Positions 9,145 through 25,671 are shown, counted from the stretch's first letter. The stretch: 64,000 bases of DNA from Candidatus Multivoradales bacterium (GCA_965223855.1 CBDCXM010000009.1:352001-416000), one strand, 5' to 3'. A program made the numbers and translations. Notes: a model not told the origin generated them from the letters alone.

Positions 9145-10545
9145 TCAGTCCCCCCGGGTCTCGCGCTCCTGGAAGCGCTCGGCGAGCGAGCGCAGGAAAC
9201 CGCTGACCCACGGCTTGATGGCGTCGAGCTCCTCGAGCAGCTGGTCGCGGCTGACCCGCTCGACGACCGTCTCTTCGAGCGTCACGACGCTCGCGGTGCG
9301 CGGCTCCGAGGTCATGATCGCCGTCTCGCCGAAGCACTCGCCCGGCCCGATGGTGCGGAGCGACACCTTCTCCCCGTCGATCTCCTTGAACACCTCGCAC
9401 GAGCCGCTGGCGATGATGTAGGCGTGCTCGCCGGGGTCCCCCTCCCGCATCAGCAGATGCCCCGCCTCGAAGGTCTCGAGCGGCAGGCTGCCGCCGCGCA
9501 TGAAGCCGACGATGTCCTGACGCAGCTCGACGACCGTCTGCTGCCTGTCCTCGGGTTTGCGCGCCATCGCTTTCTCGAGGATCCGCACCAGCTCGCGCGG
9601 TGCTCCGGCATCGTCCGGCAGCGGGGTGAAGTGGCGCTGGCGGGCCCGCAGGATCACCGTCTCGCTGGTGCGCCCCTCGTAGGGCGGCCGGCGGGCGACG
9701 AGGAAGTAGAGCATCGCGCCGACGGCGAAGATGTCCGCCCGGGCGTCCATCTCTCCCCCGGCCGCCTGCTCGGGCGACATGTAGCCCGGGGTACCGATGA
9801 CCCTCCGCCCCCAGATCCGGGTGAACGTGCTCGACACCGGGTCGTCGATCTTCGCCAGCTCGCCGTCGGGGTCCGCCAGCCTCGCCAGCCCCCAGTCGAC
9901 CAGGTAGACCTCGCCGAACTCCCCCACCATGACGTTCTCCGGCTTGACGTCGCGATGGACGACCCCTCGCTTGTGGGCGAAGGCGAGGGCGTTGCAGACC
10001 TTGACGACCACCTCCAGGAGGTCGAAGAGGGCGCCCCGCTCGATCGGCCCGGGCGGCAGCTCACGGACGAGCTCGGCGTAGGTCCGCCCCTCGAGGAGCT
10101 TCATCGTGAAGTGGAGCCGCCCGTCCTCGGTCCTTCCCAGATCGTGGACCGGCACGATGTTGGGATGCTGCAACTGACCGGTGATCTGAGCCTCCCTCAG
10201 GAACGACTGGACCGCCTGGCGTTCGTCCTCCATCTCCGTCCGCAAGAGCTTCCGCGCCAGCCGGCGCCTCAGGGTGCGGTCGTGCAGCAGCTCGACGATC
10301 GCCATCCCGCCGCTGCCGATCTCCTCGCCCGTCTCGAAGCGCTCCTCGTCAGGCGGCAGGACGTTGGCCACCAGATCCGCCTTCGCCCGTTCGTCGAGCC
10401 GTTCCGGGGGGTCGTCGCGGGAACCGAGGAGACGCTTGAACCAACCCTTCCGCGCACCGGAACCCTCCACGCGCGTCCCCTCGAGCACGGTCGCCGTACC
10501 GCCGTGTGTGCCCGATCCGGAACCGCTGGAGCGACCTTTCGTCAC
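9145..10545 (-). CDS. Hanks-type Ser/Thr protein kinase with C-terminal cyclic-nucleotide-binding domain
   Basis: IGSGGMAIV, HRDVKPEN, DWG, GTPGYMSPEQ, DIFAVG. C-terminal REGDPGEHAYII...GECFGETAIMTSEPRTASV. No TM segment. Confidence 0.93.
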   Translation of the reverse strand: MTKGRSSGSGSGTHGGTATVLEGTRVEGSGARKGWFKRLLGSRDDPPERLDERAKADLVANVLPPDEERFETGEEIGSGGMAIVELLHDRTLRRRLARKLLRTEMEDERQAVQSFLREAQITGQLQHPNIVPVHDLGRTEDGRLHFTMKLLEGRTYAELVRELPPGPIERGALFDLLEVVVKVCNALAFAHKRGVVHRDVKPENVMVGEFGEVYLVDWGLARLADPDGELAKIDDPVSSTFTRIWGRRVIGTPGYMSPEQAAGGEMDARADIFAVGAMLYFLVARRPPYEGRTSETVILRARQRHFTPLPDDAGAPRELVRILEKAMARKPEDRQQTVVELRQDIVGFMRGGSLPLETFEAGHLLMREGDPGEHAYIIASGSCEVFKEIDGEKVSLRTIGPGECFGETAIMTSEPRTASVVTLEETVVERVSRDQLLEELDAIKPWVSGFLRSLAERFQERETRGD

Positions 10546-10648
10546 CGGCGAATCGTATCAACGGCTTCGCCCCACGACTGTGGCAAACGAGGCTTCTCTC
10601 GCGACCTGCGCCAGGTCGTCGTCTCCCCGTCTCGTAACATGGCCGACA

Positions 10649-12826
10649 GTGAAGAAACGAGCCAAGGCCGGGGCTCCGAGCGCCCTGCGCGACTGGGCGC
10701 CGGTGGGCCTTTCGCTGGTGCTCCTCGTCGCCGCTATCGTCGCGACGGTCGCCGAGCCGACCGCGATGACGACCCTGCGTCACGCGGCGTTCGACGCCTA
10801 CCAGCGCCTGCAGCCCCGCGAGTACCGGCCGGCCCCGGTGCGGGTGATCGACATCGACGAGGAGAGTCTCGACCGGCACGGCCAGTGGCCGTGGCCGCGG
10901 ACGACGCTCGCCACGTTGATCGAACGGCTCGACGAAGCCGGAGCGCGCTCGATCGCCCTCGACGTCATGCTCGCCGAGCCGGACCGCACCTCGCCACAGC
11001 TCGCGCTCGAGAGTTGGGCCGCGGACCCGGCCGTCCGGGACCTGGTGGCGCGCCTGCCCGATCACGACGAGGCTCTCGAGAAGAGGCTCGCCGCCTCGCC
11101 GGTAGTCACCGGCTTCATCCTCGATCAGGAGACCCAGGGAGAGACGCCGCTCGAGAAGGGGAGGATGGTGCTCGCCGGCGATCCGGCCGCCGCCTTCCTG
11201 CCGCCGTTTCGCGGTGCCGTCACCTCTCTGCGAGCGTTCGAGGCCGCGGCGGCGGGCAACGGTGCCCTCAACATGATCCCGAGCAACGACGGCATCGTCC
11301 GTCAGCTGCCCCTGTTGCTCGGCCACGGCGGAGCGGTGCGGCCCGGTCTGGCCGCCGAGGCTCTGCGGGTCGCCGAGGGCGCCGACAACTACGTCGTCAA
11401 GGCGTCGGGGGCGAGCGGCGAGGGGCGCTTCGGCGGCCGCACCGGCATTGTCAACGTGCGGATCGGCGACCTCGAGCCGATCGTCACCGACGCGCGCGGC
11501 GCTGTCTGGCTCCACTACTCGGACCCGGTCCCCGAGCGCACGCTCCCGGCCTGGAAGGTGCTGGCGGGCGACGTCCCGGAAGGCGCTCTCGAAGGGGGCA
11601 TCCTCTTCCTCGGCACCTCCGCCGCGGGCCTCCACGACCTGCGCCTCGACCCACTCGGCCGGATCGCCCCGGGAGCAGAGGTGCACGCCCAGGGGATCGA
11701 GCAGATCCTGCAGGGGACCTATCTGACGAGGCCCGACTGGGCGCGGGCGGCCGAGATCCTCTTCATGGTGGCGATGTGGTTCGTGCTCGTCGCGCTGATC
11801 CTGCGCTTCGGCGCGCTGCCGGCGGCGGTGATCGGCATCGCGACGATCGCCGCCGCCTACCTCGGCTCGTGGTTCGCTTTCGATCGTCTGCGGCTGCTGC
11901 TCGATCCAACCTTTCCCTCGCTGTCGGCGCTGTCGATCTACTTTGTCTGCTCGGTGGCGCAGCACTGGCGCGCGGAGCGCGATCGCACCTGGATCCGCGA
12001 CGCCTTCTCGAGCTATATCTCGCCCAATCTCGTCCGGCACCTGATCGACAACCCCGGCGATCTCGCTCTCGGCGGCGAGCGACGCGAGTGCAGCTTCGTG
12101 ATGACCGACCTCGAGTCGTTCACCACACTGGTCGAGAACCTCGAACCGACGGTCGCCGTCAGCCTGCTCAACGAGTACCTCGACGGCATCGTCGACATCG
12201 CGCTGGCGCGCGACGGCACCATCGACCGCATCGTCGGCGACGCGGTAGCGGTGATGTTCTCGGCGCCGGCGGTGCAGCCCGACCACGCCGAACGCGCCGT
12301 CGCCTGCGCCCTCGAGATCGACGCGTTCGCCCGGCGCTTCAGCGCCGCCAGGGGCGAGCAGGGGGTCGAGGTCGGGCGGACGCGGATCGGCGTCAACACG
12401 GGCGTCGTCACCGTCGGCAACGTCGGCGGCGACCGGATCGTCGACTATCGTGCCCTCGGCGATCCGGTCAACACGGCCGCACGCCTCGAGACGGTCAACC
12501 GACACCTCGGTACCAACGTCTGCGTGAGCGCGGCGACCGTCGCCGCCTGCCCCGACTTCCACGGCCGCCCGATCGGACGCCTCCTGCTCAAGGGGAAATC
12601 CGAGGCGGTCGAGGCGTTCGAGCCGCTGTCGCGGGAAGAGGCGGCGGGGGCTTCGAACACGGCCTATCTGCGGGCGTTCGCCCTGATGGAGGAGGAGGCG
12701 GCGGAGGCCCCCGCCGCCTTCGACCGACTGCGGCAGCAACACCCCGACGACCCCCTGGTCGCCCTCCACGCCGATCGCCTCGCCGCCGGCGAGACCGGCT
12801 CGACCATCGCCTTCTCCGAGAAGTAG
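10649..12826 (+). CDS. CHASE2-domain class III nucleotide (adenylate/guanylate-family) cyclase
   Basis: CHASE2 motifs IDIDEESL..GQWPWPR and DGIVRQLPL, then 3 TM helices. Cyclase motifs MTDLESFT, VGDAV, RIGVNTG, GDPVNTAARLE, LKGKSEAV. GTG start at 10649 inferred. Confidence 0.93.
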   Translation: MKKRAKAGAPSALRDWAPVGLSLVLLVAAIVATVAEPTAMTTLRHAAFDAYQRLQPREYRPAPVRVIDIDEESLDRHGQWPWPRTTLATLIERLDEAGARSIALDVMLAEPDRTSPQLALESWAADPAVRDLVARLPDHDEALEKRLAASPVVTGFILDQETQGETPLEKGRMVLAGDPAAAFLPPFRGAVTSLRAFEAAAAGNGALNMIPSNDGIVRQLPLLLGHGGAVRPGLAAEALRVAEGADNYVVKASGASGEGRFGGRTGIVNVRIGDLEPIVTDARGAVWLHYSDPVPERTLPAWKVLAGDVPEGALEGGILFLGTSAAGLHDLRLDPLGRIAPGAEVHAQGIEQILQGTYLTRPDWARAAEILFMVAMWFVLVALILRFGALPAAVIGIATIAAAYLGSWFAFDRLRLLLDPTFPSLSALSIYFVCSVAQHWRAERDRTWIRDAFSSYISPNLVRHLIDNPGDLALGGERRECSFVMTDLESFTTLVENLEPTVAVSLLNEYLDGIVDIALARDGTIDRIVGDAVAVMFSAPAVQPDHAERAVACALEIDAFARRFSAARGEQGVEVGRTRIGVNTGVVTVGNVGGDRIVDYRALGDPVNTAARLETVNRHLGTNVCVSAATVAACPDFHGRPIGRLLLKGKSEAVEAFEPLSREEAAGASNTAYLRAFALMEEEAAEAPAAFDRLRQQHPDDPLVALHADRLAAGETGSTIAFSEK

Positions 12827-12827
12827 C

Positions 12828-13685
12828 TCAGCGCTCGGAGGCGGCTTCGATCCGCCGGGCCTGCTCGAGCTGCGCCTCGATGTTGGCGAGCCAGGCACGG
12901 CCGTCGGCGGTGCGCGCCAGGAGTTGCATCGCCGGCTCGCAGTAGCGCTGGACGATCTTCGAGAAGAAGTGCGGGAAGTCCGCTTCGAGGTCCCGCGGGC
13001 TACCGTAGCCGAGGCGTTCATTGACGCCCGTTTCCTCGAACTCGTAGTAGAGCGCCGGGTAGCGGCGGCGGGCGTGCGGCTCCGCCACCTGCCCGAGCAG
13101 ATCGGCGGCGCGCGCGAGCCCCGGGAGGTCTTCGACCTCCTGGTAGGCGTCCTTTTCGGGCACCGGGAAACGGGTCCGATCGATGCAGGCGGTCATCCGC
13201 TCGACGTCGAGCAGCGGATGGCTCGCGAATCGCTCGCAGACGAACTGGATGGCGCGATCGACGTGGTAAGGGCCGAGAGCGGCGTCGGTCGCCTCGAGGG
13301 GAAGCTCGACCACCGCGTCGCCGATCCCGGTCGCTCGGCGACCCGGGTCGTCACCGCGGCACAGATCCGGCACGTAACCGATGTCGTGGCACAGGAGCGA
13401 TGCGAGGACGTCCAGGCGATCGCAGGCCGGCACGGTTCCGCTCCGGTCGAGCCCTTCGAGGACCGCTTTGCCGACGAGGGTGACGAGCACCGTGTGGTGA
13501 GCGTTGTGGTAGAGCGCGTTGCACGAGGCCAGCCGCCCCAGCACCTCGACCGCGATCTCCCGCAGCGCGGCCGCATGCTCCCCCGCTTCGGGATCGGCCG
13601 CGAGAAAGCCCGCCTCCAGCCGCTCGGCGACGAGTTCGACGAGGGCGGCGGAAGGCTCGAACGATGGCGCCCCGCCGCCGATCAG
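12828..13685 (-). CDS. HD-domain metal-dependent phosphohydrolase (Npun_R2479-like), possible cNMP phosphodiesterase
   Basis: ALYHNAHHTVLVTLVG, CHDIGYV, YHVDR, RAADLLGQ. The frame is open upstream of the ORF-track start (13544) to a CTG overlapping the OmpA stop. Start uncertain. Confidence 0.8.
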   Translation of the reverse strand: MIGGGAPSFEPSAALVELVAERLEAGFLAADPEAGEHAAALREIAVEVLGRLASCNALYHNAHHTVLVTLVGKAVLEGLDRSGTVPACDRLDVLASLLCHDIGYVPDLCRGDDPGRRATGIGDAVVELPLEATDAALGPYHVDRAIQFVCERFASHPLLDVERMTACIDRTRFPVPEKDAYQEVEDLPGLARAADLLGQVAEPHARRRYPALYYEFEETGVNERLGYGSPRDLEADFPHFFSKIVQRYCEPAMQLLARTADGRAWLANIEAQLEQARRIEAASER

Positions 13686-14356
13686 CGCACCCTGACGACG
13701 ACCCTGCGATTCCGCGGTTCGCGCACCCCGTCTCCCGTCGGCACCGCCGGTTGCGATTCACCGAACGCCTCGATGGCGATCGCCGCTGCAGGGACACCGG
13801 CCTCGATCAGCCTGTCGCGCACCGCTTCGGCCCGTCGCCGCGACAGGCCGTCGTTGAGCGTCTCGGTCCCCGAAGTGTCGGTGTGACCGGCCACCCGGAT
13901 CGCCGCAGTCGCACGCTGTCGGAGGTCTTCGAGCAGCTCGTCCATCGCCCCGTCCGCCCCGCCCGCCAGCCGGGTCGTGCCGAGCTCGAAGAGGACGGTC
14001 CAGTCCGTCGGAGCGGGAGGCTCGTGCTCGATCGCCGGAGAAAAGCCGAGCTCGAGCCCGTCGACCTCCACCGTGCGGATGTCACTCAGATCGTCGAAGG
14101 AGACCGCCTCGTAGGCGGAGTCGAGCAGCGCGCTCTCGCCGTCGCGCGTCACTTCGATCGCGCCGACAGTGCCGTCCTCGTCGGGCAGCAGGACGACGTA
14201 CTGGCGCCATTCGGGCTCCTCCTCGACCGGCTCTTCGCCACCAAGGAGCGGCAGCACCACCGAGTCAGGCGGCCACCAGTGGACCGGCACCCGCTGCGCG
14301 GCACAACCTGGAAGCAGGAGAGCTCCGATCAGCACGACCGCCCGCGCTCGGTTCAT
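13682..14356 (-). CDS. OmpA-family peptidoglycan-binding lipoprotein
   Basis: Lipobox LLPGC. OmpA C-domain motifs VAGHTDTSG..N..LSRRRAEAV and FGESQP...NRRVVV. Confidence 0.92.
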   Translation of the reverse strand: MNRARAVVLIGALLLPGCAAQRVPVHWWPPDSVVLPLLGGEEPVEEEPEWRQYVVLLPDEDGTVGAIEVTRDGESALLDSAYEAVSFDDLSDIRTVEVDGLELGFSPAIEHEPPAPTDWTVLFELGTTRLAGGADGAMDELLEDLRQRATAAIRVAGHTDTSGTETLNDGLSRRRAEAVRDRLIEAGVPAAAIAIEAFGESQPAVPTGDGVREPRNRRVVVRVR

Positions 14357-14799
14357 TCGGCTGCGCTCTCCAACCTCACGAGAAATCGCGTGCCTCGGAT
14401 CCCGATCGTGCCGACCGGGGTCTCCACGTTCGCCGATTCGGGCGACAGCTTGGCGATCAGGCCGGAGACGTAGAGCAGCGTGCCGCGGGCGAGGCGGGAG
14501 AGGAACGCCCCCTCGCTCGCACCCGCCTCGTAGACGTACTCGTCGATCGTGAGACTGGTGTCGGGGCCGATCGACAGTCGGGAGTCGTCGATGAACAGCA
14601 CCCCCAGGGCGCCGTCGGATCCGGTCTCCAGGGTGTCGTCCTGGAACACCGCGGCGCCCAGCTCGGCAGCGCTGCGCTCCCCGCCCGACACGATGAAGGC
14701 ACTTCCACTCAACTCCTTGACGTGGCCGACGGGCTCGGACGCCGCGACGGCACCGGCCGAGAGGACCACGAGAACCAACCAGAGACGGCGATGCATCAC
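14353..14799 (-). CDS. Small periplasmic FecR-domain protein
   Basis: Signal peptide. DTLETGSDGALGVLFIDDSRLSIGPDT and VETPVGTIGIRGTRF (FecR core). Confidence 0.88.
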   Translation of the reverse strand: MMHRRLWLVLVVLSAGAVAASEPVGHVKELSGSAFIVSGGERSAAELGAAVFQDDTLETGSDGALGVLFIDDSRLSIGPDTSLTIDEYVYEAGASEGAFLSRLARGTLLYVSGLIAKLSPESANVETPVGTIGIRGTRFLVRLESAAE

Positions 14800-14925
14800 C
14801 TCTCCCTTCCCTTCAGATGGCTGTTACACGACCCTCACAGAATAGCACCGCCACCTCGCCGGGCAGCTGCCGACAGCGCCACACAGGTCGAAAAATCGCT
14901 ATGACAGACTACCGACACCCTACCC

Positions 14926-16737
14926 ATGGCAGATATGGCAGGTCACACCACAGGCCGCGTCCTCCTCGCCATCGCGCTCGTCGCGGTGATGGCGCCCGCT
15001 GCCTGGTCCCAGGAGGAGACGGCGCCGGTCCGCACCGCCGACGAGGAGCACGCGGCGCTCTTCCTCGAAGACCGCTTCCCGGCCGCCACGACCTGCGCCA
15101 CCTGTCACCCCGACCACTACCGCGAGTGGTCGGTGTCGCCGCACGCCTACGCGCAGATGAGCCCCGTTTTCAACGCCATGCACGGGACGATTCTCAAGCT
15201 GACCAACGGCACGAACGGCGACTTCTGCATCCGCTGCCACACGCCGGTGGGGATGAACCTCGGCGAGCCCGAGTTCATGAGCAACATGGACCGCCACCCG
15301 ACCTCGCGGGAAGGGGTCACCTGCATCGTCTGCCACCGGGTCAATCGCGCCTACGGCAAGCTCAGCGGACGGCTGGCGATCGTCGAGGGCGACGTCTTCG
15401 ACACCGTCTACGGACCGACCGGAGGCGAGGAGCTCGAGCGGGTGATCGACAGCTCCGAGTTTCGCGTCAACACCGAGCGGGGGCAGGCCGGGCGGGCGAT
15501 CCACGCCGAGGCGGAGCCGTTCTTCCAACTCCGAGAGGCGGGCATCTGCGGAACCTGCCACGACGTCAACCTGGTGAACGGCTTCCGTCTCGAGGAGGCG
15601 TTCAGCGAGTTCAAGACGTCACCGGCCGCGCGCCGGGGGGTGACGTGCCAGGACTGCCACATGGGGACGGAGCCGGGAATCGCCTCCGGGTTCCGCCAGG
15701 GGCCGGCGGCAATGATCGGCACCCGGCCGACCGCCGAGCGCCGGCTCACGAATCACATGTTCATCGGGCCGGATTACTCGATCGTCCACCCGGGGATCTT
15801 CCCGCACAACACCCGGGCCTCCGAACTGGCGACGATCCGCGACTGGCTCCAGTTCGACTGGGAAGCGGGCTGGGGCACCGACGCCTTCGAGCTCGAAGCG
15901 CCGGAGGACTACGAGTTCCCCGAGGTGTGGGCCTCCGCCGACGACCGCTACGACGCCCGCGACATCCTCGACGCCAACCTCACGCTGCTCGACGAGGCCA
16001 ACCAGGCGCGCCTCCAGCTGCTGCGCGCCGGTTACGTTCTCGGGGACACGAAGGTCGAGAAGAAGGGTCGCGGGCTCGCCTTCTCGATCGAAGTCCGCAA
16101 CGCCACCGACGGTCACGGCGTGCCGACCGGCTTCGACGCCGAGAGGCTCGTCTGGCTCGAAGTGACGGTCGCGGACGCGGACGGCGAGGTCGTCTTCCGC
16201 TCCGGCGATCTCGACCCGAACGGCGACGTGCGCGACCTGCACTCCCTCTACGTCCACAACGGCGAGCTGCCTCTCGACCGCTACCTCTTCAGCCTCCAGT
16301 CGAAGTTCCTGACCCGGATGGTGCGGGGCGGCGAGCGCGAGCAGGTGCTGGCGATCAACTACTCGCCCGACCCTCTGCCGTTCCTGCGACCCTCGGTCAC
16401 CTCGACGATCCTCACCGGGAGACCTCGCGGCGCCCGCAAGCACAAGCAGAACCTCGCTCCGCTCGGTCACCGCGTGGCGCGCTACGAGGTGCCGGCGGCC
16501 AAGCTCACCGGGCGCCCGCCGTACCGGGCCACGTTCCGGCTCAAGGCGGCGATGGTGCCGGTGAATCTGGTCCACGAAATCAAGGACGTCGGGTTCGACT
16601 ACTTCATGAGCGCTCGCGACGTCGCCGAGCGAGTGGTGGCAGGCCATCTCGTCCTCTGGGAACGACAGCTCGCCCTCGAAGACGGTGCCGAACCGCCCCA
16701 AGCCGAAGAAGCCGTGGATGCCGCCGCGTCGCCCTAG
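14926..16737 (+). CDS. Periplasmic pentaheme c-type cytochrome (c554-like N-domain plus heme-free C-domain)
   Basis: Signal peptide (AWS-QEE). 5 CxxCH: CATCH, CIRCH, CIVCH, CGTCH, CQDCH. GHGVPTGF motif in the C-domain. Confidence 0.9.
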   Translation: MADMAGHTTGRVLLAIALVAVMAPAAWSQEETAPVRTADEEHAALFLEDRFPAATTCATCHPDHYREWSVSPHAYAQMSPVFNAMHGTILKLTNGTNGDFCIRCHTPVGMNLGEPEFMSNMDRHPTSREGVTCIVCHRVNRAYGKLSGRLAIVEGDVFDTVYGPTGGEELERVIDSSEFRVNTERGQAGRAIHAEAEPFFQLREAGICGTCHDVNLVNGFRLEEAFSEFKTSPAARRGVTCQDCHMGTEPGIASGFRQGPAAMIGTRPTAERRLTNHMFIGPDYSIVHPGIFPHNTRASELATIRDWLQFDWEAGWGTDAFELEAPEDYEFPEVWASADDRYDARDILDANLTLLDEANQARLQLLRAGYVLGDTKVEKKGRGLAFSIEVRNATDGHGVPTGFDAERLVWLEVTVADADGEVVFRSGDLDPNGDVRDLHSLYVHNGELPLDRYLFSLQSKFLTRMVRGGEREQVLAINYSPDPLPFLRPSVTSTILTGRPRGARKHKQNLAPLGHRVARYEVPAAKLTGRPPYRATFRLKAAMVPVNLVHEIKDVGFDYFMSARDVAERVVAGHLVLWERQLALEDGAEPPQAEEAVDAAASP

Positions 16738-18163
16738 GGGCTTGCTGAGGAACCCTCGTGGGTCGCGCGCCGGCCTCATCTTCGCCGCCGCGACGCTGAT
16801 GGCGACGGCGATCGGCGCCGCCGAGCCTCCCACCGAGGGAGACGGCGAGAGCGCGAGCCGCCTCACCGACGAGGCGATCCCACTGCAGGTCGATGCGGTA
16901 CCCGAGCGGCCGAAGCCGCCCCTCGAGCTCGGCGAACCGTTCCTCGGCACCGGCACCCTGCGCCCCGGCTTCCGACTGCCGACCGGCGCCGTGTGGCAGC
17001 CGGCGCTCGTCGCTTTCGGCTCCCTGAGGACCGCGGCCCAGAGCTTCGACTCCGGCGCCGGCAGGGTGAGCGAGCTCGTCGCCCGGTTGGACCTCTTCGC
17101 CAACCTTCAGCTCTCGGGAACGGAGCGCGTGGTCGTCGGCTTCCGGCCGCTCGACCGCGACGGTCGCTTCACCTCGTACGTCTTCTCGAGCGACGTCCCG
17201 GGGATCGAGGACGGGTCCCGCGACGAGTGGAACGGCGAGGTGACGAGCGTCTACTTCGAGGGAGACTTCGGCGAGATCTTCCCCAATCTCTCGAAGGACG
17301 ACTTCAGCCGCACCGACGTAGGTTTCTCGGCCGGCCGTCAGCCGCTGATCTTCCAGGAAGGGATGCTGATCAACGACTCGATCGACGGCATCGGGTTGAC
17401 CCGCAACACGCTTCAGCCGGGCAATCTGTCGAACTTCCGCGCCACGCTCTTCCTCGGCTTCGACGAGGTCGGCCGGCCCGACCGCATCGACGACGACGCG
17501 CGGCTCGTCGCGCTCCTGACCTCGACCGATACCAGGAGGTCGACCTGGGACGTCGATCTCGCGTGGGTGGAATCGCAGGTCGAGGGAGACCTCCTGGCCG
17601 GCGGGATCAGCGCGATTCAGAGACTCGGGCACTACAACACCGCGTTTCGACTGCTCGGCTCTTCAGCCCTCGACCGGGAAAGCGACCTCGTCTCCGACGG
17701 CTGGCTGCTGCTCAACGAGGTGTCGTGGACGCCGCACCACAGCCACGACCTCGTCTACGTCAACACCTTCGTCGCCGCCGACCGCTTCTCGTCCGCGGCG
17801 CGCGGGCCGAGCACCGGAGGCCCGCTCGGGCGCGCGGGCATCAACTTCGCTGCCGTCGGGCTGGGCAACTACGGCGCGGCGCTGAGCTCGGAGGCCGAGG
17901 ACGTCGCCGGCGCGGCGGTCGGCTACCAGCGCTTCTTCGATCACACCCGCAAGCAGCTCCTCGTCGAGGCTGGCGCGCGTCTCGGCACCCGTTCCGGGAG
18001 CGCCGACTCCGCCGCCGTCACCGTGCGGTTTCAGACCGCGCTCAAGCGCCACTACGTGCTGGTGCTCGATGCCTTCGGCGGCTACCGCGACCCGGGACCC
18101 GCAGCACCCGGCGGCCGGCAGGAGCTACTCGGTGCGCGGGTCGAACTGGTGACGAAGTTCTGA
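16718..18163 (+). CDS. Putative outer-membrane beta-barrel (porin) protein
   Basis: Signal-like N-terminus, many amphipathic beta-strand patterns, C-terminal ARVELVTKF ending in Phe. Sandwiched between two multiheme cytochromes. Start uncertain (16718 or 16742). Confidence 0.7.
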   Translation: MPPRRPRGLLRNPRGSRAGLIFAAATLMATAIGAAEPPTEGDGESASRLTDEAIPLQVDAVPERPKPPLELGEPFLGTGTLRPGFRLPTGAVWQPALVAFGSLRTAAQSFDSGAGRVSELVARLDLFANLQLSGTERVVVGFRPLDRDGRFTSYVFSSDVPGIEDGSRDEWNGEVTSVYFEGDFGEIFPNLSKDDFSRTDVGFSAGRQPLIFQEGMLINDSIDGIGLTRNTLQPGNLSNFRATLFLGFDEVGRPDRIDDDARLVALLTSTDTRRSTWDVDLAWVESQVEGDLLAGGISAIQRLGHYNTAFRLLGSSALDRESDLVSDGWLLLNEVSWTPHHSHDLVYVNTFVAADRFSSAARGPSTGGPLGRAGINFAAVGLGNYGAALSSEAEDVAGAAVGYQRFFDHTRKQLLVEAGARLGTRSGSADSAAVTVRFQTALKRHYVLVLDAFGGYRDPGPAAPGGRQELLGARVELVTKF

Positions 18164-20202
18164 TGGCGGCCGCCCGCCTCCTCGGCCCGGCGGTGGCCGG
18201 TCTGCTCGCGATCGGCCCGGTGGCGGCGGCCGAGACCCCGGCGGCGCGCGACCCGGCGAAGATCGTCACCGCCGAGGCGTGCGGCGAGTGCCATCTCGAG
18301 GAGTTCGAGGTGTGGAAGACGACGCCTCACGCACTCGGCTTCAAGTCGCTCCACCGCAGCGCCGACGCTGAAGAGATCGCGCGCAAGATGGGTCATCGGC
18401 TCATCAAGCGCGACAGCCCCTGCCTCGAATGTCACTACACGACGGCACTCGACGGCGAGCGCGAACGCGCGGTGTCGGGAGTGTCGTGCGAGTCGTGCCA
18501 CGGCGCCGGCCGCGACTGGATCGAGGTACACAACGACTACGGCCCCGACGCCACCTTCGCCACCGAGACCGACGCCCACCGCGAGCAGCGAATCGCCGCC
18601 AGCCGAGCGGCCGGGATGCTGCGGCCGACCGACCTCTACGAGGTGGCCGCCAACTGCTTCGGCTGCCACACGGTGCCCAACGAGGAGCTCGTCAACGTCG
18701 GCGGCCACACGACGGGCAGCATCGGCTTCGAGCTGGTCGAGTGGTCGCAGGGCGAGATCCGGCATAACTTCGTCGCGGCGCAGCGGGGCGGGAGCAAGGA
18801 GAACGTCGAGCGCTCCGACGAGCGCAAGCGGCTGATGTACGTCGTCGGCCGATCGCTCGAGCTCGAGTACGCGCTGCGCGGACTCGCCAAAGCGACCGAG
18901 GACGGGGCCTACGCGAAGTCGATGATCCGCAAGGTTCGCAACGCGGTTGCCGAGGTCGGCGACATCGCGGCGGTCACGACCCTCGCGCCGGTCAACACCA
19001 TGACCGCCGCGGTGCGCGAAGCCCGGGTCAGCCAGGGGAACGCAGCCGAGCTGCTGGCCGCCGCCGATCGGGTGAGCGCGGCGACCAGAGCGCTGCTCCG
19101 GGAGCCGGCCGGCGCGCAGGTGGCGGCCCTCGATCCTCTGAGACTCGGCCAGCCGCTCCCGGGGACGGATCAACTCGCCGAGGACGAGCGCGAGGGCCTC
19201 GAGGACCCCGTCGAGGGCGCGGCCGAGACCGTCCCGGCGGCCGTCGCCGCGGCGGCCGCACCCGGAGAGCCCGGCGCCACCACCGCCGGCGCCGGCAGCG
19301 GTCGGAGCGTGCCCGACTACGCTCGCAAGACCCGGCTGCGACCGACCTCGCCGCACCGCACGATCGACGCCGGCGCGTGCAGCGGCTGCCACGAGGAGCA
19401 GAACGCCTGGTGGTTCGACGACCCTCACTACGCCGCCGCCGAGCCGTTTCACGAGGGCGATCCGAAGAACGCCCAGATCGCCCGGCTCTACGGGCTCGCG
19501 GCCGGCGAGGCGACCAGGGGAAACCAGCTGTGCATGGACTGTCACGGCACGGTCGTCACCGGCAAGGAGCGCCGCGAAGTGTGGGACGGGGTGAGCTGCC
19601 AGAGCTGCCACGGTGGCGCCGCCGACTACCTCGAGCCGCACAAGGAAGGGGACGAGACGGCCGGAGATCAGCGCAGCGGCTACCTCGCCGCACTCGGTCT
19701 CGGCATGAAGGAGCTGCGTCGTCCCGAGGTGCGGGCGCGCAACTGCGCGAGCTGCCACTACATCACCGACCCGCGTCTGATCTCCGCCGGGCACCCGACC
19801 GGCAGGGACTTCCGGATCGTCGAGCGGATGCCGCGGATTCGCCACTGGGAGCGGGCCGATCTCGACGCCTCCGCCCTCGAGAGCGCCTTCCGCGACGAGG
19901 TGGCACGGCGAGGAGCGATTCCCGAGGTTGTCCTCGCCTCGCTGCCGGCGGGAGAGTCGCCGCTCGCCGCCGCTGCGACGGCGACGCGGACCCGCCGCGC
20001 GGGAGGGGGCTCCCGCCCCGTCAGAGCCCTGCCGCCGCGACAGCGACCGGTCGATCCGATCGCCATCCCGGACCCTGCGAGCGTCGGCCCGCTCGACCTC
20101 CCCCCCTTCGACCCTCCGGCGGACGACGCGCCGCTCGAGGAGGTCCTGGCGCTGATTCAGCAGCGACTCGCCCTCATCTACGAAAACGTTCAGGAGCCGT
20201 GA
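18163..20202 (+). CDS. Periplasmic octaheme cytochrome c (two tandem c554-like tetraheme domains)
   Basis: ATG in a TGATG overlap, signal peptide. 8 CxxCH: CGECH, CLECH, CESCH, CFGCH, CSGCH, CMDCH, CQSCH, CASCH. Repeated GVSCxSCHG. Confidence 0.9.
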   Translation: MAAARLLGPAVAGLLAIGPVAAAETPAARDPAKIVTAEACGECHLEEFEVWKTTPHALGFKSLHRSADAEEIARKMGHRLIKRDSPCLECHYTTALDGERERAVSGVSCESCHGAGRDWIEVHNDYGPDATFATETDAHREQRIAASRAAGMLRPTDLYEVAANCFGCHTVPNEELVNVGGHTTGSIGFELVEWSQGEIRHNFVAAQRGGSKENVERSDERKRLMYVVGRSLELEYALRGLAKATEDGAYAKSMIRKVRNAVAEVGDIAAVTTLAPVNTMTAAVREARVSQGNAAELLAAADRVSAATRALLREPAGAQVAALDPLRLGQPLPGTDQLAEDEREGLEDPVEGAAETVPAAVAAAAAPGEPGATTAGAGSGRSVPDYARKTRLRPTSPHRTIDAGACSGCHEEQNAWWFDDPHYAAAEPFHEGDPKNAQIARLYGLAAGEATRGNQLCMDCHGTVVTGKERREVWDGVSCQSCHGGAADYLEPHKEGDETAGDQRSGYLAALGLGMKELRRPEVRARNCASCHYITDPRLISAGHPTGRDFRIVERMPRIRHWERADLDASALESAFRDEVARRGAIPEVVLASLPAGESPLAAAATATRTRRAGGGSRPVRALPPRQRPVDPIAIPDPASVGPLDLPPFDPPADDAPLEEVLALIQQRLALIYENVQEP

Positions 20203-20203
20203 C

Positions 20204-21838
20204 GTGAGCGAGCCGTTCGAACCGGGCAAGACCGTGCTCAAGCAGATCGAGCAGTACGGCGACCGCTGGAGCGCCTACGGCGCGAGCGAGAGCATCGTCT
20301 CGATCTCCGACAGGCTCACCCTCGAGGAGATGAGGGAGATCGACGTCTTCTCCGACTACGACGACTCGTTCCTCGAGAAGATCCGCTCCGACGTCTCGGT
20401 GGCGGTGTGGAAGCCGGACTCGGTGCTGTTCGAGGAAGGGAGCTACATCGACCTCGCCTTCGTCGTCCTCGAGGGAGAGGTCGAGACCTTCGTCGCCGGG
20501 ATCGGCAAGGGTGAAGCGACGCCGCAGCCGATCTTCGACGCCACACGCACCGTGCTGGGCGACGCCGAGACCACCCTGGCGGCCGAGCGCACCACACTGA
20601 TGCCGACGCTCTCGCCGCCGAGGCGGGCGCCGAAGGAGATCACGCTCCTCGCTTCGATGGACTTCGACATGCCGCGCGAAGGCACCGTGAGACTCGGCCC
20701 CGGCGAGGTGTTCGGCGAGATCGGCGCCCTGAGCGGCTGGCCTCAGTCGGTGACGGCACGGACCGTGACCGAGTGCCGTCTGGTGCAGATCCGGATCAAC
20801 GCGCTCAGGCTGATGAAGCGCAAGTCCGCGGCACTCAAGGAGCGCCTCGACGAGCGCTACCGCGAGCGCTCGCTGAGCGCGCAGCTGCGGACGACGCCGC
20901 TCCTGAGGCGCTCGAGCCCGCTGGTGATCGAGGCGCTCAAGGACGAGGTCGAGCTCGTCTCCTGCGAGCCGGGAGAGACGGTGCTCACCCACGGCGACGA
21001 GCCCGACGCGCTCTATCTGGTGCGCTCCGGCTTCCTCAAGCTGCTGCAGCCGCTGGCCGACGGTCAGATCGCCGTCTCGTACCTGTCGAAGGGGATGACC
21101 CTCGGCGAGGCGGAGCTGCTGCTGCCCGAGATCGACGGCTGGCAGGTCAGCGCCGAATCGGTCGAGTACAGCGAGCTGGTGCGGATCCCGGCACCGGTCT
21201 TCGACAATCTCCTGCGCAACGAGCCGCTGATCGAAGCCGATCTTTGGGCGTCGGCTCAGGAGCGCATCCGCGAGTCCGGCTTCGCGCGGCGGCACATCGG
21301 TCACGCGGAGTTCCTCCAGGAGGCGCTCGACACCGGGCTCGTTCAGGGCAACAGCATCCTGGTGATCGACCTCGAATCCTGCACCCGATGCGACGACTGC
21401 GTGCGCGCCTGTGCCGACACGCACGAGGGGCGCCCCCGCTTCGTGCGCGAGGGAGACAAGTACGCCAACCTCCTGATCGCCAAGTCCTGCTACCACTGCC
21501 GGGATCCGGTCTGTCTCGTCGGCTGCCCGACCGGCGCGATCCATCGCGCCGGGCTGAGCGATGTCGTCGAGATCGAAGACGAAATCTGTATCGGCTGCGC
21601 GAGCTGTTTCCGCAACTGCCCGTACGACGCGATCGTCATGCACGAGACCGGCGACCTGTGGCCGGACGACATGATCCCGGTCGGGCTGCGAGGGCGCGAT
21701 CGCCAGGTCGCCAGCAAGTGCGACCTTTGTGCCGACACCGGTCACGGGCCGGCGTGTGTCAGCAACTGCCCTCAGGGTTGCGCCTACCGGGTCGGATCGC
21801 TGGAGGAGTTCCAACGGCTGATGAGCGGGGAGAGCTAG
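20204..21838 (+). CDS. Two cNMP-binding (CAP_ED) domains fused to a DmsB/NrfC-like 4x[4Fe-4S] ferredoxin
   Basis: LFEEG...GEVFGEIG and HGDEPDALYLVRSG...LGEAE. Cys sets CTRCDDCVRAC, CYHCRDPVCLVGCP, CIGCASCFRNCP, KCDLC..PACVSNCP. No signal peptide. Confidence 0.9.
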   Translation: MSEPFEPGKTVLKQIEQYGDRWSAYGASESIVSISDRLTLEEMREIDVFSDYDDSFLEKIRSDVSVAVWKPDSVLFEEGSYIDLAFVVLEGEVETFVAGIGKGEATPQPIFDATRTVLGDAETTLAAERTTLMPTLSPPRRAPKEITLLASMDFDMPREGTVRLGPGEVFGEIGALSGWPQSVTARTVTECRLVQIRINALRLMKRKSAALKERLDERYRERSLSAQLRTTPLLRRSSPLVIEALKDEVELVSCEPGETVLTHGDEPDALYLVRSGFLKLLQPLADGQIAVSYLSKGMTLGEAELLLPEIDGWQVSAESVEYSELVRIPAPVFDNLLRNEPLIEADLWASAQERIRESGFARRHIGHAEFLQEALDTGLVQGNSILVIDLESCTRCDDCVRACADTHEGRPRFVREGDKYANLLIAKSCYHCRDPVCLVGCPTGAIHRAGLSDVVEIEDEICIGCASCFRNCPYDAIVMHETGDLWPDDMIPVGLRGRDRQVASKCDLCADTGHGPACVSNCPQGCAYRVGSLEEFQRLMSGES

Positions 21839-21841
21839 GCC

Positions 21842-22672
21842 TTGACTCACCGCCACCGCAGCGCGCGCCGGTCGAGGGCGGCCGTGATCGCGGCCTCCGT
21901 CGCCGCGCTCGCAGTGGTCGTCTACGTCGGCGGCGCGACCCTGTGGGAGGTGGCTCCGGGAACTCCGTTGAGCATCGGCTTCGGTGTCGCGGCGGCGATC
22001 CTCCTTCTCGGGGCAGCCCTCTACGGCGCGCGGCGGCGACTCGTACGCCTCGCCTCGCGACGCAGCCTCGGGACAGCCTCGAGCTGGCTCGCCTTTCATC
22101 TCTACGGCAGCCTCCTCTTCCTGCTGCTCGTGCACCTCCACTCCGGCTTCGCCGTTCCGAGCGAAGGGGTGACCTGGTGGCTGTGGGCACTCTCCTGGTG
22201 GACGGTCGTCACGGGGGTCGCCGGTCGGCTGCTGCAACTGTGGATCCCCAGAGCGCTCGGCTCGGGCCTGTCGGTGGAGGTGCTCTACGAGCGCATCCCC
22301 GAGCTGATCGAGGAGCTGCGCGAACGGTCGGAGACTCTCGCCGCCACTTGCGACGAGTCGGTGCAGAATCTCTACTCCAACCAGGTGGCGAAGCAGCTCA
22401 CGGGGCCGAGGCGCCGCTGGATCTACTTCGTCGATCCGGCCGGCGGAGCGCGGTCGCAACTGCGTGAGTTCGACTACCTGCGCACGATGCTGCCGCCGGA
22501 GGAGCAGGACAAACTCGATCGACTGGCGGGGTACCTGCGCACGAAGCTCGAATTCGACGCTCACTACACCCTGCAGGGAGTGCTGCGCTCGTGGCTGTGG
22601 ATCCACGTCCCGCCGTCGCTGGCGGTGCTCGCCCTGGTCATCGTCCACGTCTTCGCGGTCACCTACTACTGA
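21842..22672 (+). CDS. Integral membrane protein with conserved-looking intramembrane His residues (putative b-heme/ferric-reductase-like subunit)
   Basis: About 5 TM segments. WLAFHLYGS..LVHLHSGF and WLWIHVPPS..IVHVF His pairs. Confidence 0.65.
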   Translation: MTHRHRSARRSRAAVIAASVAALAVVVYVGGATLWEVAPGTPLSIGFGVAAAILLLGAALYGARRRLVRLASRRSLGTASSWLAFHLYGSLLFLLLVHLHSGFAVPSEGVTWWLWALSWWTVVTGVAGRLLQLWIPRALGSGLSVEVLYERIPELIEELRERSETLAATCDESVQNLYSNQVAKQLTGPRRRWIYFVDPAGGARSQLREFDYLRTMLPPEEQDKLDRLAGYLRTKLEFDAHYTLQGVLRSWLWIHVPPSLAVLALVIVHVFAVTYY

Positions 22673-22687
22673 TGGCGGACTCACACG

Positions 22688-24268
22688 ATGGCGGCTAAGC
22701 GTCGGCAGGGGAAGGGCTCCTACGGCCGCTGGCAACTGCCGGTGGCGAGGCGCTATCTCGTCCCGGGGTCGAGGGGGCGTCGGATGGTCCTGGCGGCCGC
22801 GCTCTTCGCGCTCATCCTGGCCGCGGTGGCGGCAGACTTCCGGCTGCGGCGCGGCAAGGCGCTCTCCAAGGGCGCGCTGTCGTCGCACCACGCCCTCCAG
22901 GAGCAGGACTGCGCCTCCTGCCACGTCGAGTTCGATGCGGTGAGCGACGACCGCTGCTCCTCGTGCCACGAGAAGTTCGGCGATCAGCTCGGCGTCTACA
23001 CCTTCGCCGCTCACTACCTGTACCGGTCGACCGACTTCCAGCGCGTCGTCGCCTCGGAACACGAGCTGCCGTGCTCCTCCTGCCATCTCGAGCACGCGGG
23101 GCGCGAAGCTCAGATCACCCGCGTACCGGATTCGCGCTGTCTCGACTGTCACGAATACGGCGCCTTCGGCGACGACCACCCGGAGTTCGCCTTCGCGCGG
23201 GAGGAGGCCGCCGAGGCGGGCGGCCTGCACTTCCCTCACATCGAGCACATTCGCGAAGTGATGGCGCAGCAGAACCTGCACGACGTCGAGCGGTCGTGCC
23301 TCTACTGTCATCGGCCGGAGGCGGACGGGCGCTCGTTCCAGCCGATCGAGTTCGATCTCCATTGCGACTCCTGCCACCTCACGACGACTACGGCGACGCC
23401 GCGGCTGCCGATCGCAGGAGAGGCGGGCGAGGAGGATGGTCCCGGAGTCGAGACGCTGGAAGCAATCCGCGCTCGCGGCGGCCCGGGCACGGAGTGGGCC
23501 TACTACACGAACCCCAACGAGTTCCGCCGCACCGGGCCGCGGATCCTCAAGTCGCCGCTGCATCACGAGGATCCATGGATTCTCGACAACCTGCGCCGGC
23601 TGCGGCGCGAGCTCTATCCCGACGCCGGGCTCGCCGACCTCCTGACCGCCTCCCCCGATGCCCCGGTGCATCGATTGAGCGAGGTCTACGGCGAGGCGAT
23701 CGCCACCCTGCAGTCACAGGTCGACGGCCTGCGTGCCCGCCCCGAGCCGGAGATCCAACGTGACCTCGCGAAGCTCTCCGCGCTCCTGACCGAGGCGGAG
23801 CGGAGCCTCCTCGATCCCTATACCCCCCTCGACGAGACCGAGTTCCAGCTCGCCCTCGAGCGACCCGATCCGAATCTGTCGGCGGAGCAAGTCGACTCGA
23901 TCGACCGCCTCGCCGACGAGCTGACGACGCCGTGCCGCCAGTGCCACATCGTCGAGAACGCCACCCTCGCCCGGGTCCAGACCGATCAGCGGACTCTCCT
24001 GAGCGCCGAGTTCGACCACCGCGCCCACATCCTCCAGCGGCGCTGTCTCGACTGCCATCGCGAGATCCCCGTACTCGAGCACCTGAACTCCCCCGAGCCG
24101 GTCGATCCCGCGATCGACAACGCCGGCATTCACAACCTGCCGCGCATCGAAGCGTGCCGGGAGTGCCACCAGCCGCGCCAGGTCTCGGACCGCTGCGTCA
24201 CCTGCCACGTCTTTCATCCGGACAAGAACCGGCGATCGGAACTGCTGCTCTACCTGGAGACCGGCTGA
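22688..24268 (+). CDS. Membrane-anchored decaheme cytochrome c (c3/c7-like)
   Basis: N-terminal TM. 10 CxxCH: CASCH, CSSCH x2, CLDCH x2, CLYCH, CDSCH, CRQCH, CRECH, CVTCH. FPHxxH and FDHxxH distal-ligand motifs. Confidence 0.92.
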   Translation: MAAKRRQGKGSYGRWQLPVARRYLVPGSRGRRMVLAAALFALILAAVAADFRLRRGKALSKGALSSHHALQEQDCASCHVEFDAVSDDRCSSCHEKFGDQLGVYTFAAHYLYRSTDFQRVVASEHELPCSSCHLEHAGREAQITRVPDSRCLDCHEYGAFGDDHPEFAFAREEAAEAGGLHFPHIEHIREVMAQQNLHDVERSCLYCHRPEADGRSFQPIEFDLHCDSCHLTTTTATPRLPIAGEAGEEDGPGVETLEAIRARGGPGTEWAYYTNPNEFRRTGPRILKSPLHHEDPWILDNLRRLRRELYPDAGLADLLTASPDAPVHRLSEVYGEAIATLQSQVDGLRARPEPEIQRDLAKLSALLTEAERSLLDPYTPLDETEFQLALERPDPNLSAEQVDSIDRLADELTTPCRQCHIVENATLARVQTDQRTLLSAEFDHRAHILQRRCLDCHREIPVLEHLNSPEPVDPAIDNAGIHNLPRIEACRECHQPRQVSDRCVTCHVFHPDKNRRSELLLYLETG

Positions 24269-24606
24269 TGGGAGCGCGGCTGCTGTGCAAGACCGGCAAG
24301 CTGGAGGGGCTCGAGTTCTCGCTCGGCGAAGAGACGACCGTGGGTCGCCGCCGCTCGAGCGACGCGGTGGTCGACGCCCCCGGGGTTTCGGGCACGCACG
24401 CGACGATCCGCTGGTCGGAGGAGGGCGGCCGCTACGAGCTCGAGGACCTCGGCAGTACCAACGGCACCCTGCTCGACGGCGTCCCCGCCCAGGGCATCGA
24501 GCCTCTCGGGACCCTGCACGTCATCACCTTCGGGCGGCACCACAGCTTCATCTTCGTGTGGGACGGCGCGACCCCGACCGGCACGACGAGCGCCGAGGAG
24601 GAGTAG
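24268..24606 (+). CDS. Stand-alone FHA domain protein
   Basis: ATG in a TGATG overlap. TVGR, VSGTHA, LEDLGSTNGTLLDG. Confidence 0.9.
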   Translation: MGARLLCKTGKLEGLEFSLGEETTVGRRRSSDAVVDAPGVSGTHATIRWSEEGGRYELEDLGSTNGTLLDGVPAQGIEPLGTLHVITFGRHHSFIFVWDGATPTGTTSAEEE

Positions 24607-24660
24607 GCCGCTCTCCCCCCCTCGGCCTCGGCCCCTCGGAGAACTCCGAGCCCGGGCTCG

Positions 24661-25607: not shown

Positions 25608-25630
25608 TCATTAGTGTAAGAACCGTTACA
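25589..25630 (+). promoter_or_regulatory. Sigma70-type promoter for mscS with an overlapping palindromic operator
   Basis: TTGACA (25589-94), 17 bp, TAGTGT (25612-17). Palindrome TGTAA-N6-TTACA (25615-30) over -10/+1. AAGGAG RBS before GTG 25672. Confidence 0.65.
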
Positions 25631-25671
25631 GCAGTACCGCTTGCTTCAAGAACAGTCTAAAGGAGCCCCCC

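Follow-up and report, generated by a model that had tools for sequence, protein, structure and literature searches.

In the 64,000-nucleotide stretch of Candidatus Multivoradales bacterium DNA analysed here (GCA_965223855.1, CBDCXM010000009.1:352001-416000; the window, with positions counted from its first letter), a block of 12 genes at 9145-24606 brings multihaem cytochromes and an outer-membrane barrel together with a nucleotide cyclase, a protein kinase and other signalling proteins. The first-pass annotation of this DNA read the block as one undescribed system, an electron conduit across the envelope under the control of cyclic nucleoside monophosphates (cNMPs) and protein phosphorylation. 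The observation of the locus is real and its interpretation is partly supported: the 12-gene picture is probably a neighbourhood coincidence, with three separate units lying side by side. Unit 1 (14926-24606) would be a regulated chain of the PCC4/Ptd type (PCC, porin-cytochrome complex) that reaches from the cytoplasm to the envelope. Unit 2 (10649-14799) would be a self-contained envelope-sensing cNMP module made up of a CHASE2 cyclase and HD, OmpA and FecR proteins, and unit 3 (9145-10545), a cNMP-binding Ser/Thr kinase, is a plausible reader of unit 2. This reading is carried by a comparison of gene neighbourhoods, in which the window proteins were compared with the surroundings of 42 distinct ptd-type loci, the window included. 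Co-conservation of the signalling and cytochrome genes had been set beforehand as the test of a single system, and the CHASE2, HD, OmpA and FecR genes are present at one of the 42 loci, that of the window, and beside none of the other 41.

Gene content and operon layout

The GC content of the window ranges from 62 to 73%, which makes raw lists of open reading frames noisy; genes were therefore called by third-position GC (GC3 frame analysis), and domains were assigned by Pfam and NCBIfam profile searches of the called proteins. Every gene named in the first-pass annotation was recovered, as were the contiguity of the block and, from counts of CXXCH motifs, the 5, 8 and 10 haems of its cytochromes. 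The 12 genes are as follows.

9145..10545, (-): Ser/Thr kinase with a C-terminal cNMP_binding domain (Pfam Pkinase, E 6.4e-38; cNMP_binding, E 1.3e-23)
~10649..12826 (start codon inferred), (+): CHASE2-sensor class III nucleotide cyclase (Pfam CHASE2, E 1.1e-52; Guanylate_cyc, E 2.8e-16)
12828..13544, (-): HD-domain metalloprotein, candidate cNMP phosphodiesterase (NCBIfam NF045583, E 8e-73, 245 bits)
13682..14356, (-): OmpA-family peptidoglycan-binding protein (Pfam OmpA, E 5.3e-18)
14353..14799, (-): secreted FecR-domain protein (Pfam FecR, E 9.2e-10)
14926..16737, (+): PtdA-like pentahaem cytochrome with a C-terminal non-haem domain (5 CXXCH motifs)
16718..18163, (+): PtdB-like outer-membrane beta-barrel (no family match; the AlphaFold2 model is a barrel)
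18163..20202, (+): octahaem cytochrome, a tandem-duplicated PtdD-like tetrahaem module (8 CXXCH motifs)
20204..21838, (+): PtdE-like cytoplasmic iron-sulphur (Fe-S) protein, two CNB-fold sensor domains and an NrfC/HycB-type ferredoxin predicted to hold four [4Fe-4S] clusters (Pfam cNMP_binding, Fer4_11)
21842..22672, (+): PtdF-like inner-membrane protein of the PCC3/PCC4 inner-membrane protein family (no family match; motifs and AlphaFold2 model)
22688..24268, (+): PtdG-like decahaem cytochrome with an N-terminal membrane anchor (10 CXXCH motifs, hydrophobic N-terminal segment)
24268..24606, (+): single-FHA protein, 112 aa (Pfam FHA, E 6.7e-15)

The NF045583 score of the HD protein (245 bits) is below the curated cut-off of 400, and the protein has no Pfam match. 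Judged by eye, the OmpA-family protein reads as a putative lipoprotein. The seven co-directional genes on the (+) strand at 14926-24606 diverge from the FecR gene and are as tightly coupled as had been claimed, since every junction is an overlap or a gap of at most 15 nt. Two of the overlaps are TGATG, the gap between the ptdE-like and ptdF-like genes is 3 nt, and the FHA gene begins in overlap with the decahaem stop codon. None of the seven reading frames is interrupted, and all have a strong third-position GC bias. Scans of 14300-25700 returned no promoter-like site and one terminator-like site, which lies within an opposite-strand gene, and inspection of the FecR/pentahaem intergenic region by eye found no CRP-type palindrome (TGTGA-N6-TCACA). 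Elsewhere in the window, GC falls to 0.62-0.64 at 4001-6000 and 46001-48000, lower than in the surroundings.

The electron-transfer genes and the signalling genes are conserved apart

Full-length ptdE orthologues (57-67% identity) occur in 15 of the 41 genomes of the window's order, the window counted, and an even sample of 301 genomes from across the phylum has 9 with such an orthologue. Across the 42 distinct loci, the order of cytochrome, barrel, Fe-S protein, membrane protein and decahaem cytochrome is kept wherever the contig reaches; the full seven-gene order is present at all ten relative loci long enough to show it, and the operon order recurs in records from Thermoanaerobaculia, Vicinamibacteria, Acanthopleuribacteraceae and Ignavibacteria. 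This recurrence argues that the operon arrangement is not due to chance.

The left-hand genes follow a different distribution. G003, a 93%-complete genome of the same genus, has the cyclase, HD, OmpA and FecR genes in synteny at 66, 57, 51 and 68% identity, and in G001, also of the same genus, the same four genes lie on one 4.5-kb contig (HD 57%, FecR 58% identity); no ptdE orthologue was found in either genome. Cyclase orthologues (57-66% identity in G003, G021 and G001) occur in these three genomes and in that of the window (G000), which is the only one of the 41 in which the cyclase-orthologue and ptdE-orthologue sets overlap. One unpublished genome among the 41, G005, has neither. The cNMP-binding kinase has an orthologue in G022 (54% identity) at a distance of 1.35 Mb from ptd, and one in G029 (43% identity) whose contig is not that of ptd. 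Since the left block is syntenic where ptd was not found and the kinase orthologues are distant from ptd, the block is best divided into three units; the CHASE2/HD/OmpA/FecR group is, as judged from synteny, a conserved module of its own. What stands of the proposed single regulated conduit is that the cytochromes, the barrel, the sensor-fused Fe-S protein, the four-His membrane protein and the FHA protein form one conserved unit, whereas the membership of the cyclase, HD, OmpA and FecR proteins falls away.

It is accordingly very unlikely, in our estimate, that all 12 genes form one cNMP- and phospho-controlled system, in which the cyclase would make the messenger, the HD protein would erase it, the kinase and the Fe-S protein would read it and a kinase/FHA pair would gate the conduit. 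The genes are adjacent and divergently arranged in the window genome, and a different class III cyclase lies 2.5 kb upstream of the operon in one relative (L019), but the window's own cyclase, HD, OmpA and FecR genes recur at no other locus and, the window's genome excepted, genomes with a cyclase orthologue were not found with ptd, nor the reverse. In G026 and G027, a CHASE2 cyclase 30-33% identical to that of the window stands on the same strand downstream of the paralogous cluster described below, in which both sensor pockets have Arg; a cyclase follows that cluster, however, in only two of the seven genomes with enough flank. The cyclase module of G003 is flanked by two other cNMP-domain effector genes (CNB-patatin and CNB-acyltransferase), which suggests that this module tends to adjoin its readers. 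The kinase in the window has a canonical sensor pocket, whereas both pockets of the window's PtdE-like protein lack Arg. A kinase gene lies within 5 kb of the operon at 14 of the 42 loci, but the 8 of 35 seen at Ptd-type loci, which are related to one another and have unequal flanks, were judged not clearly above chance (about 7-10% for a genome such as the window's, with about 29 kinase genes in 4.5 Mb, and more in the relatives, which seem to be richer in kinases), and the orthologues in G022 and G029 are far from ptd.

Two side observations concern these neighbourhoods. At L076:16052-19467 (G003), the CNB-patatin (NTE-like) gene is divergent from FecR and is followed by the CNB-FeeM-like acyltransferase gene; on the other side of the cyclase, past a methyltransferase gene, lies an 883-aa fusion of a kinase and an extracytoplasmic function (ECF) sigma factor. 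Outside the window, 16-22 kb ahead of its first letter, an FHA-like gene is clustered with two Ser/Thr kinase genes (G000:C9:329606-336463).

A sensor-fused Fe-S protein predicted to dock on a five-helix membrane protein

The PtdE-like protein belongs to a family of 677 representative clusters (E <=1e-30). It has four Cys motifs, in which 15 of the 16 Cys are invariant and one is at least 90% conserved among 40 sequences, and the nearest solved relatives of its Fe-S domain are HycB3 (7qv7_A, E 5.3e-16), HycB and NrfC. No signal peptide was seen by eye and its domains are of cytoplasmic type, from which a cytoplasmic location is predicted.

The Arg of the phosphate-binding cassette is needed for the binding of cAMP and cGMP. 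In an HMMER alignment with PKA RI-alpha, where this Arg lies in PRAAT, pocket 1 of the PtdE-like protein has Gln at the position, as do 119 of its 120 closest homologues, within a near-invariant GWPQSVTA motif that is also found in one PtdE each from a record labelled 'Cytophagia', a metagenome-assembled genome of an unclassified bacterium, an Ignavibacteria record and a Vicinamibacterales record. In pocket 2 of the 120 homologues, Glu is commonest (59), followed by Gln (43), and Arg occurs in 14. The Gly-Glu pair of each cassette is kept: G171, E172 and G301 are invariant, and position 302 is Glu in 115 of 120. Canonical Arg is present in both sensor pockets of the paralogous fusion proteins, and the pocket of the window kinase is canonical as well (FGE...PRTAS). 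Given that Arg is needed for cAMP and cGMP, Gln in its place in pocket 1 makes their usual binding mode unlikely, and the conservation pattern suggests that the pocket is probably kept for some ligand other than cAMP or cGMP bound in the usual mode. Two cNMP readers had been proposed in the block; the kinase, with its PRTAS, could retain that role, and the Fe-S protein, without the phosphate-binding Arg, probably loses it.

Some related records depart from this gene structure. A PtdE orthologue at G054:C32:59907-61502 has one in-frame TAG, and three database entries of 822-828 aa (P0109, P0110 and P0121) join PtdE-like and PtdF-like sequences as one product; a joined Fe-S/membrane product from Oceanospirillum was reported by He et al., who suspected a merged gene call (PMC5566968).

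The AlphaFold2 model of the PtdF-like protein (mean predicted local distance difference test score, pLDDT, 89.7) has five long helices, at residues 3-34, 42-66, 79-100, 109-140 and 219-275. Two WX3HX13H motifs lie on helices 3 and 5 (W82-H86-H100 and W251-H255-H269), and helix 4 carries an SGXXG-type motif, TGVAG at 124-128 in the window and SGLxG in the consensus. W82, H86, H100, G125, G128, W251 and H255 are invariant in 31 sequences. Helix number and motifs agree with those published for the PCC3/PCC4 inner-membrane protein (PMC5566968). In modelling of subunit pairs, a check that the first-pass annotation had proposed, the PtdF-like protein with PtdE residues 362-544 gave a median ipSAE (interface score) of 0.70, against 0.00 for the best of three controls. 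The runs agree in at least 79% of contacts, with a partner pLDDT of at least 77. In the model, the first and last Cys motifs of PtdE contact the Arg-rich loop preceding helix 3 and the segments preceding helix 5, on the side of H86 and H255, which supports docking of the PtdE-like on the PtdF-like protein.

Flavoprotein and FHA genes in the relatives and their partial loss from the window

In most relatives, the decahaem gene is followed by genes for a two-FHA protein (236-325 aa) and for an FAD/NAD(P)H protein that has Pyr_redox_2 and, at its C terminus, FHA (Pfam). The flavoprotein-FHA gene is present at 25 of the 42 distinct loci, and in Vicinamibacteria the two-FHA gene lies upstream of the pentahaem gene instead. 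The 112-aa FHA protein of the window matches residues 5-100 of the 282-aa L015 protein, that is, the first half of a two-FHA protein, and the gene for the flavoprotein-FHA (a PtdC-type FAD/NAD(P)-binding oxidoreductase) is absent from the window locus, as the flavoprotein is from the locus of one same-genus genome. By this comparison the window has lost the second FHA domain and the flavoprotein-FHA fusion that its relatives carry. An MgtC-family gene and a MarR regulator gene at 24664-25607 (-), convergent to the FHA gene, occupy the site of the second FHA domain and the flavoprotein-FHA gene in the relatives.

These losses raise the question of whether the window operon is a decaying, non-working remnant. 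To the shortened FHA gene and the missing flavoprotein-FHA gene can be added the case of G004, of the same genus, where the FHA gene has been lost entirely and a convergent kinase gene starts 5 nt past the decahaem gene. The seven frames of the window are nevertheless intact, with their strong third-position GC bias, the haem, Cys and His motifs are all kept, and the six core genes are intact in G004 as well, so that we regard decay as most improbable and retain the reading of unit 1 as a variant of the chain.

FHA domains are found repeatedly and in three forms, namely as separate proteins, joined to the flavoprotein or joined to the decahaem cytochrome, and both the FHA domains and the sensor-type domains on the Fe-S subunit are conserved across phyla. 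The last of the three forms comes from a paralogous seven-gene cluster, found in eight genomes (L080:331-5352 in G026, likewise L078/L079, L088, L090, L092, L094, L096 and L098), which encodes a Pyr_redox-CNBx2-Fe-S fusion (798 aa), a PtdF-like protein, an FHA-decahaem fusion (599 aa), an HbpS-like protein, a 705-aa protein, a 1300-aa decahaem protein with LVIVD repeats and a tetrahaem protein. By the Rosetta-stone argument, these fusions indicate that flavoprotein, Fe-S protein, FHA domain and decahaem cytochrome act together. In a variant cluster (L043:661-15423, L044-L047 and L051; records labelled Cytophagia, KSB1, Coneutiohabitans and others), next after a PtdE orthologue (53-57% identity) come a 340-aa protein and then a Ser/Thr kinase joined with an FGE-sulfatase domain, with overlapping start and stop codons. 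The 340-aa product was considered as a PtdF-type protein and ruled out, as it has no HX13H motif.

Regulation thus looks built into the ptd-type operon, as far as domain content can tell. The kinase/FHA pairing proposed for the window holds to the extent that FHA domains recur and that a kinase is translationally coupled within the operon of the related variant; it is unlikely to extend to the window kinase, the orthologues of which are far from ptd.

The outer-membrane barrel and the cytochromes

The AlphaFold2 model of the PtdB-like protein (mean pLDDT 69.2) is a barrel of about 18-20 strands at residues 107-491, and the protein ends in Phe. Its top Foldseek matches are 18-strand barrels, MOMP (5ldv, E 1.4e-12) and then AlgE and OprD/Occ. 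The model leaves the first 103 residues disordered, although they include a highly conserved part: an N-terminal extension (window 16718-17000, residues ~55-106) has invariant L67, P73, R75, P76, E81 and G83, among others, and could be a plug or a cytochrome docking segment.

The two halves of the octahaem cytochrome are 31% identical (E 8e-19), from which the protein is taken to be a duplicated tetrahaem. The decahaem cytochrome is syntenic in the relatives. No lipobox was found by eye in the three window cytochromes, and the Pfam MtrC/MtrF models match only the octahaem above cut-off, and barely so (33.3 against 30 bits), the other two cytochromes scoring too low. The pentahaem cytochrome, which has a 72%-identical PtdA counterpart in the cultured Sulfidibacter corallicola, is the best-conserved protein of the operon (62-77% identity). 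It matches Thermochromatium tepidum cytochrome c552 (5ze8_A, E 4.8e-14) and, at its N terminus, weakly, the NCBIfam ExtKL model (E 1.8e-9).

The high conservation of the pentahaem protein, its grouping with c552, the weak ExtKL match and the resemblance of the barrel model to 18-strand substrate channels are also what would be expected if the same inner chain ended at a periplasmic enzyme, that is, if the pentahaem protein were a reductase for a small solute entering through the barrel, modelled on ExtKL/MccSep, for which biochemistry is available (PMC13510729). The window protein, however, has Phe in place of the family-defining selenocysteine (Sec) or Cys, at the site aligned by eye with the Sec-containing peptide of MccSep given in the available text of that paper, and no substrate clue was found in the locus. 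We consider this end point rather unlikely, and prefer a chain that would lead on to the pentahaem cytochrome with its barrel.

Discussion

For unit 1, the analysis shows which genes are present, their synteny, their conserved motifs and a complex model in support, and from these we infer its cofactors, the direction of flow, the terminal substrate and all of the regulation. In the model that we propose, the PtdE-like four-cluster Fe-S protein would dock on the cytoplasmic face of the five-helix membrane protein, whose four conserved His would hold two b haems. Electrons would cross the inner membrane through these haems and pass to the anchored decahaem cytochrome, then to the octahaem and finally to the pentahaem cytochrome with the 18-20-strand outer-membrane barrel. 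In most relatives, the electron input would be the NAD(P)H-type flavoprotein bearing FHA, so that the chain with its flavoprotein would amount to a split, Fe-S-wired counterpart of NOX and ferric reductases that exports reducing power. Two controls most likely act on it, the reading of phospho-threonine by the FHA domains and a ligand, probably other than cAMP or cGMP in their usual mode, at the non-canonical sensor domains.

He et al. propose the opposite direction for PCC4 (PMC5566968), in which Fe(II), Mn(II) or another external donor supplies electrons that run by way of the barrel and the periplasmic cytochromes to the membrane protein, and this protein reduces the quinone pool. The cluster was first found in iron oxidisers, and no lipoprotein or clearly extracellular cytochrome was recognised at the locus, which suits uptake. 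Against it stand the predicted docking of a cytoplasmic four-cluster Fe-S protein on the membrane protein and the NAD(P)H-type flavoprotein that most relatives encode next to the chain or as part of a fusion; a path reaching the cytoplasm would fit these better than a quinone end point. We judge the uptake model to be improbable for this operon and favour the outward chain.

Several points weigh against this preferred reading. The proposal of He et al. is itself one, and the function of ptd is called 'completely unknown' in bioRxiv 10.1101/2023.11.21.568154, there being no experiment on any Ptd or PCC4 protein. The PtdF-like protein is a candidate dihaem b protein, its haem b binding predicted from motifs, and its fold gives little help: Foldseek against the PDB with the model found no match at E <=0.001, phmmer against the PDB with the sequence found nothing below E 1, and the fold matches from VIA-align (4D2, Z 8.7; STEAP4, 7.9; STEAP1, 7.6; FdnI, 7.6) are all under the tool's helical noise mark and were set aside. 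Among 157 solved complexes, 116 attain the ipSAE mark, as do 2 among 215 mismatched pairs, counts that hold only roughly for a complex model built from our own alignments. A search of the window's 92%-complete genome with the L015 query found no flavoprotein orthologue (the best match, with 30% identity and E 8e-13, is confined to the N-terminal part); with none at the locus or in the genome by this query, NAD(P)H input cannot be claimed for the window. The MtrB barrel has 26 strands and is wide enough to sheath a decahaem cytochrome; a barrel modelled with 18-20 strands is narrower, and the threading of a cytochrome through it may be doubtful. As for the separation of the units, CHASE2 cyclases are juxtaposed with clusters of this superfamily twice, in the window and in G026/G027, which gives a real link some likelihood. 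Control of the conduit by cNMPs at this locus is nonetheless a weak claim. It would be a long shot to see Ptd/PCC4-type conduits as signal-gated valves, in which FHA and sensor domains switch a NOX-like export and where, here, the CHASE2 cyclase would act through the cNMP-binding kinase on a phosphorylated Ptd component read by FHA.

Ptd/PCC4 clusters are widespread, and the window and its relatives add three testable points: (i) the starting point of the chain is probably a cytoplasmic NAD(P)H flavoprotein rather than the quinone pool; (ii) phospho-threonine readers appear to be built into the chain; and (iii) the sensor pockets seem to have drifted away from cAMP and cGMP in the ptd branch, while a sister branch keeps canonical pockets. 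Sulfidibacter corallicola, as a cultured carrier, makes genetics possible. The value of the 12-gene finding itself is mainly negative, in that the locus is real and a single new 12-gene system is not supported.

Comparison with known systems

Neither part of the block is as novel as the first-pass annotation supposed. On the basis of architecture, motifs and a shared relative (5ze8), the right half is an acidobacterial (Thermoanaerobaculia) copy of PCC4/ptdABCDEFG. PCC4 comprises a porin, periplasmic cytochromes with 4, 5 and 10 haem sites and a conserved inner-membrane protein, and in its subgroup II an Fe-S gene lies upstream of the inner-membrane protein gene (He et al. 2017, Front Microbiol 8:1584, PMC5566968). 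The ptdABCDEFG cluster adds to PCC4-like parts an FAD/NAD(P) oxidoreductase and a CNB/Fe-S protein; its PtdA is homologous to T. tepidum c552, and it is transcribed in marine low-oxygen water (bioRxiv 10.1101/2023.11.21.568154). The window shares with these the porin, the pentahaem cytochrome, the tetrahaem module, the decahaem cytochrome and a sensor-domain Fe-S (pfam13247) gene directly upstream of a five-helix WX3HX13H membrane protein, and its relatives, unlike the window, share the FAD/NAD(P) oxidoreductase as well. The window differs in the duplication of the tetrahaem to an octahaem and in the presence of an FHA gene, and the relatives in a flavoprotein that carries FHA and sits at the 3' end. 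The hosts also differ, the window being from Acidobacteriota, whereas both sources, in their available text, deal mainly with Proteobacteria and Planctomycetes, to which the preprint adds Nitrospirales.

The main texts of PMC5566968 and of the preprint, supplements excluded, make no mention of FHA, kinase or cyclase. Among the literature found on forkhead-associated proteins, multihaem cytochromes and extracellular electron transfer, one table row is relevant: of the 87 iron oxidisers in a Gallionellaceae pangenome, 27 are listed, with no comment, as having a 'forkhead-associated protein' that carries 10 haem motifs. A literature search on Thermoanaerobaculia with multihaem cytochromes and porins found nothing.

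The left block likewise has a described counterpart in the CHASE2 adenylate cyclase/phosphodiesterase/FecR-domain/TPR cluster of Campylobacterota (mBio 2022, PMC9239204), and in Sinorhizobium meliloti the FecR-domain protein SMc02177 is discussed with the CHASE2 cyclase CyaD1 (PMC5498481). A CHASE2 cyclase, a secreted FecR-domain protein and a candidate cNMP hydrolase are common to the window and the Campylobacterota cluster; in the window, the candidate hydrolase is an Npun_R2479-type HD protein and an OmpA-family protein stands in place of TPR. By its domains, and with the HD hydrolase as putative, the block is of the CHASE2 cyclase/phosphodiesterase/FecR cluster type.

ExtKL/MccSep of Geobacter is a periplasmic pentahaem polysulfide reductase with a catalytic selenocysteine, encoded beside a porin (Sci Adv 2026, PMC13510729), and pentahaem proteins with a C-terminal beta domain have been grouped with c552 in one family (EMBO Rep 2025, PMC11976967). 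The window pentahaem protein shares the five haems and the C-terminal beta domain with both; unlike ExtKL/MccSep, it has no Sec or Cys at the site aligned by eye and is about 150 residues longer.

With MtrCAB and the Pcc complex of Geobacter (OmbB-OmaB-OmcB), the window operon shares a barrel and multihaem cytochromes at the outer membrane. It differs from them in that its cytochromes show, by eye, no lipobox that would mark a lipoprotein surface cytochrome, in that the barrel is modelled with 18-20 strands (pLDDT 69) against the 26 of MtrB, and in that the inner module would start in the cytoplasm and not at a quinol oxidase.

The ptd-type chain has a further parallel in NOX, FRE and STEAP, with which it would share an NAD(P)H flavoprotein feeding two stacked b haems on two HX13H helices; a likeness of the PCC3/PCC4 membrane protein to ferric reductase domains was already drawn by He et al. 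(PMC5566968). The ptd-type chain differs in placing a four-cluster ferredoxin between flavin and haems and in having its parts on separate genes, and the structural match of the PtdF-like protein to STEAP is weak (STEAP4, Z 7.9; STEAP1, Z 7.6). Taken together, these comparisons of gene content and motifs identify the window operon as a flavoprotein-less, half-FHA variant of the PCC4/Ptd operon that had already been described in silico.

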